64,000 nucleotides of DNA from Limnothrix sp. BL-A-16 (GTDB taxonomy: Bacteria; Cyanobacteriota; Cyanobacteriia; CACIAM-69d): the NCBI GenBank assembly GCA_041937175.2, contig CP166615.1:1216001-1280000 (forward strand), given 5' to 3'. Shown piece by piece: positions 12,256 to 27,664 of the stretch. Made by a program: the position numbers and the translations under genes. Below the pieces are notes generated by a model. It ran no database searches and had not been told where the DNA came from. It saw only the letters and a list, made by a program, of their open reading frames with translations. The stretch's first letter is position 1; each line of letters begins with the position of its first letter.

Positions 12256-12897
12256 TTACTTGTTGGGCTGGGGAGTCATGCGCAGGTAAGGCTTGATTTC
12301 CGTCACGCCCTTGGGGAATTTCTGGCGAGCTTCCTCGGTCGGAATCGAGGGAACCACCACGCAATCGCCGCCATCTGTCCAGTCGGCGGGCGTAGCCACA
12401 CTGTAGTTATCGGTCAGTTGCAGCGAGTCAATCACACGCAACAGCTCATCAAAGTTGCGGCCGGTGCTGGCGGGATAGGTGATCGTCAAACGCAGCTTTT
12501 TGTTGGGATCGATGATGAAGACCGATCGCACCGTCAGGGTGTTACCGGTGCTGGAATTGGGGTGAATCATCCCGTACAGTTCCGACACTTTCTTATCTTC
12601 GTCGGCCAGAATCGGATAATTCAGGGTCGTGCTTTGGGTTTCTTCAATGTCGGCCGTCCAGCCATGGTGCGAATCTACGCTGTCAACGCTCAGGGCCAGC
12701 GCCTTCACATTGCGCTTGTCAAATTCACCCTTCAGTTGGGCAACGCGGCCCAGCTCGGTGGTGCAAACGGGGGTATAGTCCGCCGGGTGCGAAAACAGCA
12801 CCACCCAGCTATCGCCTGCCCAAGCGTAGAAGTCGATCGAGCCGTGGGTGGAAGCCTGCGTGAAATCGGGGACGGTATCGCCAAGTCTGAGAGTCAT
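12256..12897 (-). CDS. 1-Cys peroxiredoxin (Prx6 family)
   Basis: FSHPADYTPVCTTE, YPASTGRNFDE. Confidence 0.95.
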   Translation of the reverse strand: MTLRLGDTVPDFTQASTHGSIDFYAWAGDSWVVLFSHPADYTPVCTTELGRVAQLKGEFDKRNVKALALSVDSVDSHHGWTADIEETQSTTLNYPILADEDKKVSELYGMIHPNSSTGNTLTVRSVFIIDPNKKLRLTITYPASTGRNFDELLRVIDSLQLTDNYSVATPADWTDGGDCVVVPSIPTEEARQKFPKGVTEIKPYLRMTPQPNK

Positions 12898-12925: not shown

Positions 12926-13092
12926 TTGACATCCTCCTCGCCCCAAAGGGTGAGGATTCCTCACCGCGCCTGAACCCAGCGAATCGGGCCGAGGTCGCTG
13001 AATGGGGTTGACGCTTCACAGGCCACCACTGGCGAACCAGTCTGACGCTGGCCTCCACGTCCGTTTAAAGTCTCGGACTGCCCGCCCGCGAC
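12926..13092 (-). ncRNA. Orphan tnpB 3'-tail / IS200-IS605 right-end (omegaRNA-like) module, copy 1
   Basis: Minus strand translates VAGGQSETLNGRGGQRQTGSPVVACEAST..., like a TnpB C-terminal tail, then GGAATCCTCACCCTTTGGGGCGAGGAGGATGTCAA; an in-frame TGA lies upstream, so no tnpB ORF. Confidence 0.7.
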
Positions 13093-13336
13093 GATGCATC
13101 AAACCAGTCAGGAGTGAATTTGCGGGCTGACGGGTCTGGGGGGCTAGAGGGGAGAGCGCCCGCAGATCATGATGCCACGAAACCCCAGTTTTCCGACCGG
13201 ATTTTCGATCTTTTTCACCCAACAGGCCCGCCAGCGGAATTCCAGGCGACAAATGCGGTTGATTCGGCTTGGCAGTTCCGCTGTAGCTAGGGCTTGTACT
13301 GCTGGAAAAATTAATGAAGCGCTTTTACGATTAGGC

Positions 13337-24300: not shown

Positions 24301-25842
24301 TTAGAGAGCGCTGCTGGTTTTGCAATCATCTGTGGCCCGATCGGCCCGGGCTGCCAAATCCTTCAGCACCGAAGGCACGATTTGATTGAGATTCCCTGCA
24401 CCCAAAAAGAGGGCTAGGTCACCCGGTTGAAGAGCCGCAGACAGAAATTGGTGTGTGTTGTCGAGCGAGCCGCAATAGGACACTTCGGGATGGTAGGCCG
24501 CCACCCGATCGGCCAAGGTTTGGCCGCTGAGTCCTGGAACCTGTTTCTCACCAGCGGCATAAATATCCGCAATGGCCACTAAATCTGCATCCTGAAATGA
24601 TTGGGCAAACTCCTCAAGAAAGGTTTGGGTGCGACTGTAGCGGTGGGGCTGAAAAATTGCCACTACTCGCGATTGCCCTGCTTGGGCGCTCAACCGTTGG
24701 CGAGCCGCGGCCAAGGTGGCGCGAATTTCGCTCGGATGGTGTGCGTAGTCGTCATACAGGGCAATTCCCCCCTCGGTGCCCCGATGCTCGAAGCGACGCT
24801 GGGCCCCCTGAAAGCCCGCCAATCCTTCGGCAATTTGGGCAAAGTCCAACCCCAAGTCCCGACCCACGGCCACGGCAGCCAGGGCATTGCTGAGATTGTG
24901 CTGACCCATCAGTTGCAGTTGGATTTCCCCGAGCACCTCCCCACGTTCTAGCACTGTGGCTATTACACCCTGGGCCGTATATTGGGGGTTCAGAACGGTG
25001 TAATCGGCCACGCGATCGGGATCGAGGCTGTAGGAAATATCGGGTTTGAGGCGATCGCGCAACGTGGGACAGTCCAAACACCCCACCCAGCGTTGGCAGT
25101 TGTGGGTAAACTGCTCAAAAATTTCGACCACCCCATCGATCGATTGGTAGTGATCGGGGTGGTCGAGTTCAATGTTGGTGATAACACCGAGTTCCGCAAA
25201 AAGCTTAATCAGTGAGCCATCGGACTCATCCGCCTCCGCCACCAGGTAAGGGCCCTGGCCTAAGCGGGCGTTGCCCTCCCAAGCGTCCACCTCGCCGCCC
25301 ACAATGATGGTGGGATCAATGCCTGCCTGAAGCAGCATGTAACCGATCAGACTGCTGGTGGTGGTTTTGCCGTGGGTTCCGGCAACGGCGATCCCGCGCG
25401 ATCGGGTCATCAGCGCCGCCAGCAGGTCTGAACGATGCAAAATTGGACAACCCAGCTCCACAGCCGCTTGATATTCCGGGTTTTCTGCCTGAATCGCCGT
25501 TGAACAGACAACCTGCGGCAGGACTTGCGGTGCGGTGGAGTGCGCTTCGGCCTCGGGAACCGTGGCTAGGGCCATTGCCGCCAAGGGAACATCAGAGGCC
25601 AGCGCGGGAGGAGTTGCAAAAGGCACACCGGAACGAAAGACATCGAAGTTCGTTGCGGATTGTTGCCAAAAAATCTGAGCACCTAGTTGTTCCAGGCGTT
25701 GGGTAATATGGCTCGATCGCGCGTCCGATCCAGAAACGGGGATCTTCTGCTTGACCAGAATATACGCGAGAGCCGACATGCCGATGCCACCGATGCCAAT
25801 AAAGTGGAAAGGCCTTCCGCTAAAATCCACAAGATTCGGCAT
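24301..25842 (-). CDS. murC: UDP-N-acetylmuramate--L-alanine ligase
   Basis: IGIGGIGMS, AGTHGKTTT, EADESDG, DDYAHHP, FQPHRYSR. Confidence 0.96.
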   Translation of the reverse strand: MPNLVDFSGRPFHFIGIGGIGMSALAYILVKQKIPVSGSDARSSHITQRLEQLGAQIFWQQSATNFDVFRSGVPFATPPALASDVPLAAMALATVPEAEAHSTAPQVLPQVVCSTAIQAENPEYQAAVELGCPILHRSDLLAALMTRSRGIAVAGTHGKTTTSSLIGYMLLQAGIDPTIIVGGEVDAWEGNARLGQGPYLVAEADESDGSLIKLFAELGVITNIELDHPDHYQSIDGVVEIFEQFTHNCQRWVGCLDCPTLRDRLKPDISYSLDPDRVADYTVLNPQYTAQGVIATVLERGEVLGEIQLQLMGQHNLSNALAAVAVGRDLGLDFAQIAEGLAGFQGAQRRFEHRGTEGGIALYDDYAHHPSEIRATLAAARQRLSAQAGQSRVVAIFQPHRYSRTQTFLEEFAQSFQDADLVAIADIYAAGEKQVPGLSGQTLADRVAAYHPEVSYCGSLDNTHQFLSAALQPGDLALFLGAGNLNQIVPSVLKDLAARADRATDDCKTSSAL

Positions 25843-26424
25843 TGCCGCTCCTCAAAACACCACACCAACAATCACGCCATATCATATCAGCAACGGTCAA
25901 ATTGCCGCAGAGAAGCGTTGATCCTCCTAAAACCAGCCTGGGCTGTGGGTTTCGGCGAACGATCGTGGCCTAAAATCTGGCAAATTTCTTGCGAATTCAA
26001 CCCATTTTGATGGGGAACAGCCCAATTAGTCCGATCGACCCAGAAGGGTGTTTGAGCGGCCCCAGCCAAGCCTCCAGCAGACCTCCAGCAGACCTTAACC
26101 AAGCCCAAACCCAGCTTTTGCGATCGCCCCACCGGGCCTCATTCCCAGCGGCCATCACTCACTTCGAGGCCAAACCGCAACCAGCGATCATGATCCCCGC
26201 AAAAATTCTGCAAAATCCGTTGCGATTAGTTTGGGATTCGGCCGGGATCGATGGTTAAATGTGGGCACATTGCTGGCATGATGGCTTGGCACTTGTCAGG
26301 CGATCACTTGGGGCAGCTTTTCGTGTGCTCGCCCTCTGTTTTGGGGGGATCGATCGACCCGATCAACCCCGCCTCAGTTCCCAGAATCAGATCGTGCAGT
26401 TAGCCTGTACCATATGATTTTGGG

Positions 26425-26430
26425 TACAAT
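26425..26430 (+). promoter_or_regulatory. Candidate -10 box for the gap2 transcript
   Basis: TACAAT 12 nt upstream of the omegaRNA-like module. Confidence 0.45.
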
Positions 26431-26442
26431 CAACGCCTTCAA

Positions 26443-26608
26443 GTCGCGGGCGGGCAGTCCGAGACTCGAAACAGACGCAGAGGTCAGCGCCAGCCTGGTT
26501 CGCCAGCAGCAGCCGATGAAGCGTCAACCCGTGGTCTAGTTGAGCAACTTTAGTAGTTGCTGAATTAGGGCTGGCAATCCCGCTCCGAAAATGTGGGAAA
26601 AACGTCAA
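26443..26608 (+). ncRNA. Orphan tnpB 3'-tail / omegaRNA-like module, copy 2, in the gap2 leader
   Basis: First 87 nt match copy 1 at 73 positions without gaps; translates VAGGQSETRNRRRGQRQPGSPAAADEASTRGLVEQL*; degenerate right end GGCAATCCCGCTCCGAAAATGTGGGAAAAACGTCAA. Confidence 0.68.
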
Positions 26609-26650
26609 CTATTTCCTTAATACACCCTAAGCACGCGAGGGCATAGCATA

Positions 26651-27664
26651 GTGATTAGAGTCGCCATTAACGGTTTTGGCCGAATCGGTCGTAACTTCTT
26701 AAGATGCTGGTTGACCCGCCAAGATAGCCAGCTCGAACTGGTGGGCATTAACGATACGTCCGACCCCAAGACGAATGCCCACCTGCTCAAGTACGACACG
26801 ATGCTCGGCAAGCTAAATGCCGACATTCAGGCTGACGAAAATTCCATTACCGTCAACGGCAAAACGATCAAATGCGTGTCCGATCGGGATCCGCTCAAGT
26901 TGCCCTGGGCCGAGTGGGGCATTGACCTGATCATTGAATCGACAGGCGTATTTGTTAGCGAAGAAGGCGCTTCTAAGCACATCCAAGCCGGTGCCAAGAA
27001 AGTCCTGATCACCGCTCCGGGCAAGGGTGACGGTGTTGGCACGTTCGTGATGGGCGTGAACGACAGCGACTACGACCACGACAAATTCAACATCGTTAGT
27101 AACGCAAGCTGCACCACCAACTGCTTGGCTCCCGTGGTGAAGGTGTTGCATGAGAACTTTGGCATCATCAAAGGCACCATGACCACCACCCACAGCTACA
27201 CGGGCGACCAACGGTTGCTCGATGCGAGCCACCGGGATGTGCGTCGGGCCCGCGCTGCGGCCATGAACATTGTGCCCACCTCCACGGGTGCTGCCAAGGC
27301 GGTGGCCCTGGTGTTGCCGGAAATGAAGGGCAAACTGAACGGGATCGCGATGCGTGTGCCGACCCCGAACGTTTCGGTGGTGGACTTTGTGGCCCAGGTG
27401 GAAAAGAGCACGATCGCCGAGCAGGTGAACGAAGTGCTGAAGGCCGCCGCTGAAAACGGCCTGAAGGGCATTTTGGAATACAGCGATCTGCCCTTGGTTT
27501 CGTCGGACTATAAGGGAACCGATGCTTCCTCGATCGTGGACGCTAGCCTGACCTTGGTGCTGGGCGGCGACATGGTGAAGGTGATCGCTTGGTATGACAA
27601 CGAGTGGGGCTACAGCCAGCGCGTTGTGGACTTGGCGGAACTGGTTGCCCGCAAGTGGAAGTAG
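26651..27664 (+). CDS. gap2: NAD(P)-dependent GAPDH, Calvin-cycle type
   Basis: [35 protein letters not shown]; divergent from murC. Confidence 0.96.

Follow-up and report, generated by a model that had tools for sequence, protein, structure and literature searches.

Copies of an omegaRNA-scaffold module in the leaders of gap2 and a peroxiredoxin gene of Limnothrix sp. BL-A-16: probable remnants of a gene-less mini-transposon

The stretch of DNA considered here, referred to throughout as ‘the window’, comprises 64,000 nucleotides (nt) of the cyanobacterium Limnothrix sp. BL-A-16 (contig CP166615.1, positions 1,216,001 to 1,280,000 of assembly GCA_041937175.2). It contains two copies of a module of some 166 nt, one in the leader of gap2 (‘copy A’) and the other in the leader of prx, a peroxiredoxin gene (‘copy B’). 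A preliminary description, made from the sequence alone, had taken the pair for orphan omegaRNA-like pieces of TnpB transposons, possibly domesticated as a family of structured leaders or as docking sites for a TnpB protein encoded elsewhere.

The genome that holds the window (4.56 Mb) is designated G000, and its chromosome coordinates are prefixed ‘C1’. G001 and G002 are further species of the same genus; G003, G004 and G005 represent three other genera of the same family. L071 is a metagenome contig with the gap2 leader of a relative, and G000, G001, G002 and L071 are the four lineages of the genus that were compared. Other L numbers are labels for loci. The features at the two sites, in window positions, are as follows.

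26413..26418, + strand: TATGAT, putative -10-like box of the native gap2 promoter, from its conservation across genera
26422..26434, + strand: native flank GGGTAC plus target motif (AATCAAC here, TATCAC in L071), from four gap2 upstream regions and element-free G003
26435..26442, + strand: GCCTTCAA, the 8 nt that remain in copy A of a left-end side of ~77 nt, from comparison with L071
26443..26608, + strand: copy A, decayed omegaRNA-scaffold/right-end module (nhmmer E 9.5e-44; covariance model 158.6 bits)
26609..26650, + strand: leader beyond the right end, 42 nt, GAGGG preceding the GTG, and the would-be guide-position flank of the omegaRNA
26651..27664, + strand: gap2, glyceraldehyde-3-phosphate dehydrogenase (Pfam Gp_dh_N, Gp_dh_C)
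13107..13110, - strand: TGAC, target-adjacent motif of copy B, in agreement with the family motif
13093..13106, - strand: TGGTTTGATGCATC, probable 14-nt left-end remnant of copy B, hairpin lost, from similarity to the left ends of full copies and of copy F
12926..13092, - strand: copy B, decayed omegaRNA-scaffold/right-end module (nhmmer E 2e-36)
12256..12897, - strand: 1-Cys peroxiredoxin gene (Pfam AhpC-TSA, Redoxin, 1-cysPrx_C)

Copies A and B are homologous (blastn, 88 nt at 84% identity, E 4.6e-21 in the 4.56-Mb genome), and what had been said of their likeness and placement was verified on the sequence. Their first 24 nt are identical, both contain a CTGG-TTCG-CCAG hairpin and a GACG(C/T)...GCGTC pairing, both terminate in GTCAA, and both lie in sense with the gene downstream: copy A ends at 26608, 42 nt from the gap2 GTG at 26651, and copy B at 12926, 28 nt from the peroxiredoxin ATG at 12897. 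The terminal hairpin of copy A, described earlier as decayed, still forms a 5-bp stem; it is the conserved 3' tail that is lost, GGAGGATGTCAA having become GGAAAAACGTCAA. Nor is the pair alone: G000 yields 6 copies by blastn, 15 by nhmmer profile and 17 by covariance model. No Rfam family reaches its gathering score in the window, and none appears even at E <=1 in 26300-26700.

What the module is can be read from ‘copy E’ (C1:673227), whose first base lies 120 nt ahead of the stop codon in an intact tnpB open reading frame (ORF) of 402 amino acids and which extends 43 nt past it. The encoded protein carries the Pfam domains HTH_OrfB_IS605, OrfB_IS605 and Cas12f1-like_TNB, and matches the ISDra2 TnpB structures 8bf8/8exa/8h1j at E 2.4e-75, with residues 5-381 aligned. 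Alignment pairs copies A and B with the 3' ends of copy E and of seven further tnpB-linked copies. Because the copy E module spans the 3' end of tnpB plus the right end, the module of copies A and B is, by this alignment, the omegaRNA-scaffold region of an ISDra2-like IS200/IS605 element, that is, the last 120 nt of tnpB together with the right end; the preliminary identification thus stands. The omegaRNA layout, in which the RNA region begins in the 3' end of tnpB, extends to the right end and takes the flank as its guide, is seen in copy E and the full copies, and is attributed to copies A and B by homology. G000 contains one intact copy of the parent tnpB element, namely copy E (tnpB at C1:672141-673349). 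In the gap2 and prx copies, TnpB matches by tblastn cover only its last 29-38 residues, which overlap the module; no protein gene lies inside, as had been noted.

The RNAalifold consensus of 27 copies predicts 38 pairs, and compensatory changes occur in 15. Both structures noted earlier are part of the fold, the hairpin (columns 72-83) and the longer pairing (33-38 with 109-113); columns 73/82 and 74/81 switch in 11 of the 27 sequences. The right end terminates at GGAGGATGTCAA in full copies. The two window copies keep different parts of this structure: both retain the 5' hairpin (columns 1-23); copy B retains the terminal hairpin and the GGAGGATGTCAA tail and is without the central stem, and copy A is without the conserved 3' tail. 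The module (L045:4038-4175) also bears a weak resemblance to Rfam HgcC (RF00062; 20.1 bits, E 0.02, gathering score 50) that is due to the terminal hairpin and to the tail GGGGAGGA.GUCA.

The left boundary of the family was set by aligning eight full or frameshifted copies. Insertion is directly 3' of T(T)GAC or TCAC, with no target duplication, and a full copy then reads, in order, target motif, left end with GC-rich hairpin and T-run, TATAAT, tnpB start. A direct comparison comes from L071, where the very gap2 site occupied by copy A holds native GGGTAC, TATCAC, a left end of ~77 nt with hairpin, the joint ATGAAAG|TCGCGG and a well-kept module of 163 nt whose right junction is identical to that of copy A. 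At the joint, the tnpB start codon is fused to the first base of the scaffold, AAG being common to both sides. (L071 was found by a metagenome scan with a 17-nt word from the gap2 leader; of 41 loci, it alone was a gap2 leader, and the 40 without a gap2 start were dropped as chance matches.) Similar designs occur elsewhere: in copy F the module directly adjoins the left-end hairpin, and copy D and the L004 copy of G002 have complete left ends, with ~150 nt between left end and module.

The preliminary description had held that no left end exists. One is present in L071, at the gap2 site itself, and in copies D and F; in the window, the left-end side is cut to 8 nt in copy A (and also in G002) and to 14 nt in copy B, after TGAC, probably by later deletion. 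The target motif is TCAAC at copy A, TCAC in L071 and TGAC at copy B. Because L071 holds an intact mini-element at the same gap2 site, the family to which copies A and B belong is, as far as sequence can tell, a PATE-type, non-autonomous mini-transposon that encodes an omegaRNA, and not a set of bare scaffolds by origin. The window copies are ex-members: the left end with its subterminal hairpin, present in L071, D, L004 and F, is gone from both. A hairpin in G001, GCAAGG..CCTTGC, was considered as a second type of left end and rejected, since L031 places it internally and the true left end lies ~120 nt further upstream. PF01797, the Y1 transposase, has one match in G000 (C1:1721528-1721869, 65.6 bits).

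A search for module DNA in 41 genomes gave a match in 7, with strong matches confined to the genus of G000 and full copies present in G001 and G002. A D-type element of 352 nt occurs at 98.6% identity at different loci in G000 and G002, and the family is apparently still mobile. Beside the mini-elements there are shorter units of ~78 nt, which consist of the last two module hairpins and begin right after internal GCGTCAAC. Because these units start there, ‘partial’ profile matches cluster from model positions 82-86. One such unit in G002 (L102) stands directly after a TTGAC that is uninterrupted in G000, and another (L104) is inserted after TGAC; placed in G002 where G000 is empty, the units seem to behave as two-hairpin mini-transposons. 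Further, a second tnpB subfamily has the same design as the first: its left-end hairpin is followed by ATG or GTG, to which the opening base of the subfamily's own scaffold region is joined, here the base that follows the ...NAARNIL codons. At the gap2 site, no empty allele was seen among the genus members; G003-G005 are without the element. The loci concerned are these.

G000 C1:1071508, 1931930, 4026979, 635505 and 1157472, with L009, L102 and L104: units of ~78 nt
L116: second tnpB subfamily, tnpB-linked
L117 and L110/L120 (G000 C1:287527-287670): mini-elements of the second subfamily, L117 lying 34 nt before a phycobilisome gene

The divergence of the gap2 region from that of G000 is given below as mismatches over aligned positions.

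G000 versus G002: module 5' half 4/85; module 3' half 5/81; gap2 fourfold sites 18/165; 42-nt leader 0/42
G000 versus L071: module 5' half 12/85; module 3' half 31/78; gap2 fourfold sites 22/60; 42-nt leader 1/42
G000 versus G001: module 5' half 26/85 plus an 18-nt insertion; module 3' half 33/77; gap2 fourfold sites 48/159; 42-nt leader 1/42

The gap2 module diverges at about the rate of synonymous sites, and the promoter and the 42-nt 3' leader are almost invariant. As a measure of decay we used 133 columns without variation among eight tnpB-linked copies. Copies C and D differ at 2 of these each; copy A differs at 22 (10 in the tail and terminal hairpin), copy B at 29 (23 in the central stem; it also has an 11-nt insertion), and the G001 gap2 copy at 35. 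Few copies are as decayed as A and B, which are broken in different parts. The G001 gap2 copy is another variant of the element, with another type of hairpin and, before the module, a different segment that L031 shows to be internal. Because it is another variant, the gap2 site would have been hit, or its element replaced, at least twice. The module is missing upstream of gap2 in all three other genera (G003, G004, G005), and the prx copy, present in G000 and G002, is absent from G001 and those three genera. The expectation of the preliminary description, a module conserved upstream of gap2 orthologs, is not borne out: a conserved cis-regulatory leader of the riboswitch kind would be present and constrained before orthologs, and here the other genera lack it and divergence within the genus is near-neutral.

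As a promoter of gap2, the TACAAT noted 12 nt 5' of copy A was considered. The hexamer is indeed there (26425-26430); it is native flank, formed by GGGTAC and the target motif, and two relatives have TACGGT and TACTAT instead, so it was rejected as a promoter. The -10-like box that is conserved is TATGAT, at 26413-26418, kept in G000, G001, G002, L071 and G003 and replaced by TATTAT in module-less G004 and G005; all three of the other genera also retain the GGGTAC region that comes after it. A consensus scan flagged no sigma-70-type promoter in 26250-26700, the TATGAT box included. The insertion point is 15-16 nt downstream of this box, and because it lies downstream, copy A would sit in the 5' untranslated region (UTR) of gap2 and be co-transcribed with it in sense. 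Contigs from the RNA libraries of two studies (P2 and P3), in which RNA ends are not resolvable, join the module to gap2: in P2, one from X2 spans 26285-27617 with 2 differences and one from X3 spans 26511-27186; in P3, those from X6 span 26547-26658 and 26629-27178. No contig of X2 or X3 lies over 25600-26265; in X6 and X15 there is cover of the upstream spacer too, possibly from DNA or from another strain. Touching the -10-like box from upstream is an inverted repeat, GTGCAG..CTGTAC (26394-26410), near-invariant in the four members of the genus; flagged as a hairpin, it could be a candidate site for a gap2 regulator.

We consider it probable that A and B descend from a mini-transposon of the PATE type, gene-less and derived from an ISDra2-like IS200/IS605 element, that both are old and immobilised, and that they are passengers and not regulators; domestication is not supported. 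In the mini-element, a left end with a hairpin by the target motif would have led to the start codon of tnpB, joined directly to the complete omegaRNA scaffold (the final 120 nt of tnpB and the right end). Other such elements, with a complete and expressed omegaRNA, may be maintained in trans by active TnpB, and hence have spread. The one at gap2 would have landed in sense in the 5' UTR, ~15 nt downstream of the -10 box, where its left-end hairpin and T-run would act as a terminator on the sense strand and stop the host transcript. Deletion of the hairpin would then have restored read-through from the native gap2 promoter and, by removing what the transposase requires, immobilised the copy; the leftover scaffold would have drifted near-neutrally as a passenger of the leader. 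The terminator role and the deletion are plausible. On its sense strand, full copy L005 has no terminator-like site but the left-end hairpin, which is flagged also in L071 and D. G000/G002 have lost this hairpin, as has G001, where the end points are others and the element is of a different variant.

Several observations weigh against this account. L071 and L117 retain the left-end hairpin ahead of gap2 and the phycobilisome gene; the putative terminator is recognized by pattern matching, and the left-end hairpin of copy E, whose stem is mutated, went unflagged in the terminator scan. The X2 contig begins 128 nt upstream of the -10 box. The 5' halves of the window copies are closer to their nearest relatives than are the 3' halves (~90% versus 67% identity for A, 91% versus 48% for B), and in the comparison of G000 with L071 the 5' half of the module is below the fourfold rate. 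The gap2 site is occupied by an element in all four lineages of the genus seen. Lastly, gene-less copies crowd near start codons: 11 of 34 gene-less loci lie in sense <=45 nt upstream of one (p 3.7e-5 against a null of 0.079, itself crude in that genes were called as the longest ORFs of >=100 amino acids, which inflates intergenic space; p = 0.004-0.014 with a null of 0.135-0.16).

For this test of placement, orthologous loci were merged, neighbours were assigned by ORFs, with Pfam backing where possible, and six loci without an assignable neighbour were excluded. The genes behind the 11 are gap2, prx, a DUF1348 gene, an ORF without a name, grpE, an enoyl-ACP-reductase-type gene, HcyBio, a second AhpC/TSA gene, an ArsA-type gene, an aldo-keto reductase and the phycobilisome gene; of the tnpB-linked copies, 1 in 15 is that close to a start. 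Orientation as such is unbiased, with 20 of 34 gene-less loci in sense against 0.556 expected (p 0.42). Near starts, sense and antisense copies number 11 and 4 (p 0.12), the antisense ones abutting the start codon by the left end. These four, all Pfam-backed (L031 dapA, L106 panD, L109 histidine kinase, L113 MscS), rule out a strict sense-only rule. The density of target motifs was also rejected as the cause of the crowding, being flat with distance on the sense strand (0.0064-0.0068 per base). Of the enrichment that the preliminary description had proposed, closeness to starts is found and orientation bias is not: the crowding looks real, and a sense bias is not established. Target preference would be the simplest reading of it, and the melted, promoter-proximal DNA of well-expressed genes would fit; the crowding could also reflect a benefit. 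For IS608, a preference for the highly transcribed rrn genes has been reported (PMC5027513).

Benefit is at the heart of two of the alternatives. Under one, the modules are domesticated docking sites: a TnpB encoded in trans binds, and perhaps cuts, the scaffold in the leader and so affects how gap2, prx and other leaders are translated or how stable they are; the guide position would be taken by the 16-42 nt that separate scaffold and start codon. The 11 gene-less copies close to starts would suit such a role, and a cognate TnpB with intact motifs is at hand; TnpB is, moreover, reported to process its own mRNA into omegaRNA (PMC10278001). The 5' halves of A and B are well kept, but since the split of G000 and G002 both halves of the gap2 module have changed equally. 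Gone from copy A is the invariant 3' tail that would adjoin the guide, and from copy B the central stem; the G001 gap2 copy, with its 18-nt insertion, is off at 35 of 133 invariant columns. The module is also missing before gap2 in 3 of 3 other genera and before prx in these and G001, and four copies abut start codons in antisense. A nuclease-dead partner was looked for among the TnpB homologs of G000, and none of the five is one; all (5/5) keep the RuvC D/E/D motifs. When the 20-nt flanks of 15 G000 copies were searched as guides with <=4 mismatches, no second target was found beside a target motif; the sole close match, 18 of 20 for copy A at C1:3631768-3631787, follows TTGGCT in an AT-rich stretch and has no such motif. 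Near-neutral drift, decay in different parts, intact nucleases and the want of a second target all count against the docking that the preliminary description had proposed, and we think it distinctly unlikely. For the narrower proposition that active TnpB binds or trims leaders in which a sense scaffold stands within a guide's length of the ribosome site, we would likewise say only that it is unlikely; were it true, carbon, redox and chaperone genes (gap2, the two peroxiredoxin-type genes, grpE and others) would be tied to transposon activity. In the literature searched, we found no description of a nuclease-competent TnpB that uses an omegaRNA scaffold at the level of RNA.

The other adaptive alternative dispenses with TnpB and has the hairpins shield the 5' ends of highly expressed mRNAs, structure and not sequence being what is selected. 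The downstream genes are of the right kind (gap2, two of peroxiredoxin type, grpE, one of enoyl-ACP-reductase type, phycobilisome), the 5' hairpin is intact in A and B, and near-neutral drift of the sequence would fit selection on structure alone. Yet the gap2 leader folds no better than its shuffles (z -1.35; 18 of 200 fold as well), a result that is neutral with respect to a passenger; gap2 orthologs show no compensatory change between them beyond the subfamily types; and the other genera lack the module in a gap2 leader that is otherwise conserved. We regard this explanation as no less doubtful than docking. The last alternative agrees that the modules are debris and differs as to of what: a complete tnpB element would have inserted at each site and lost all but its 3' end by random deletion. 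Remnants are indeed graded (~70 tnpB codons in L013 and L018; in C, L021 and L028, 12-18 nt of tnpB ahead of the module), and no intact relative of copy B was found. Against it stand the intact mini-element with its start-codon joint at the L071 gap2 site, the same architecture in the second tnpB subfamily (L117 and L110/L120 versus L116), and the mini-elements at different loci in G000 and G002; we hold this explanation to be very unlikely. Descent from a gene-less mini-transposon, with later decay in place, is the reading that we prefer.

Some further observations concern the repeats of these genomes more generally. The ~150-nt segment of D-type elements (L045:3855-4000, G000 C1:2102607-2102752; also in L004) has a diverged form upstream of C1:2848676, and no Rfam match at E <=1. 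In G002, a 205-nt mini-element (L106:2441-2645) abuts the panD start in antisense, replacing 33 nt of G000 C1:816297-816330; because it does so, the panD leader of G002 is the reverse strand of the element. Of the 15 nhmmer copies in G000, 13 are on the + strand, at 0.63-4.03 Mb; genes are 50% on +. Orientation coupled to replication was considered and rejected, as the cumulative GC skew is weak and turns near 0.5 and 3.3 Mb and copy orientation does not flip. The flank after copy C (L044:4164-4270; G000 C1:3909127 onward) resembles the 3' end of the other tnpB family of G000, which has three copies with ORFs of 384 amino acids (C1:1042532, 3504501 and 3988596); the copy C region appears to be one element beside the wreck of another. 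An unrelated dispersed repeat of ~150 nt, at 75-84% identity, lies in the L111:2240-2390 region of G002 and in >20 places in G000 (by blast of flanks, e.g. C1:534267, 3233733, 29271 and beside C1:2206236).

Taken together, one genus offers a series: full insertion sequences; mini-elements, known from two subfamilies, that consist of left end, start codon and whole omegaRNA; a unit of 78 nt with two hairpins; and immobilised fossils in the leaders of core genes. The series supports the idea of elements that consist of a guide RNA only and live off TnpB in trans, and it shows a path by which such elements become fixed parts of 5' UTRs. It bears also on target choice, since copies crowd by the start codons of well-expressed genes. 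A role as regulator would matter greatly, and the evidence points to a passenger; for annotation, the warning is that omegaRNA-like leaders in cyanobacteria need not be riboregulators.

ISDra2 inserts at the target motif TTGAT, whereas the motif here is T(T)GAC or TCAC. The likeness to the TnpB/omegaRNA of that element (8bf8, 8exa, 8h1j) is one of protein and layout: a similar protein, a scaffold that extends over the tnpB 3' end to the right end, and a target motif 5' of the left end. With TldR proteins, reported to be nuclease-dead, TnpB-derived, RNA-guided transcription factors (PMC10705468), the common ground is the idea behind the preliminary description, a TnpB-type guide RNA in gene control; the modules differ from the systems described there in that the TnpBs are intact (5/5), no distant target adjoins a motif, and the RNA is not beside a tldR-like gene. 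Closer are the RNAs of Halobacterium salinarum, where reports include a PATE-derived non-coding RNA and a truncated remnant of tnpB with the 3' transcript still present, and where HgcC of Rfam is tied to tnpB right ends (Gomes-Filho et al. 2015, PMC4615843). There, as here, RNA from the 3' end of tnpB survives in truncated or gene-less derivatives, and the link to HgcC recurs, if weakly; the halobacterial RNAs are described as intergenic or overlapping tnpB, with an effect on growth when overexpressed, and the window copies stand in the leaders of core genes.

Closest of all are the PATE-like elements of Geobacillus stearothermophilus (Meers et al., PMC10055086). PATEs, according to that account, ‘often encode omegaRNAs’, to be acted on in trans by the TnpB of other copies, and the likeness extends to the absence of a protein gene, the ends of a tnpB element, an omegaRNA region, and a TnpB that comes from elsewhere. 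By comparison with the elements as described there, those reported here belong to a cyanobacterial genus and show, in two subfamilies, a deletion joint at which the start codon of tnpB meets the scaffold's first base; the window copies, for their part, are without left ends and lie inside mRNA leaders. OmegaRNA-encoding PATEs are already in print, and copies A and B are a further, fossil case, lodged in the leaders of core genes.

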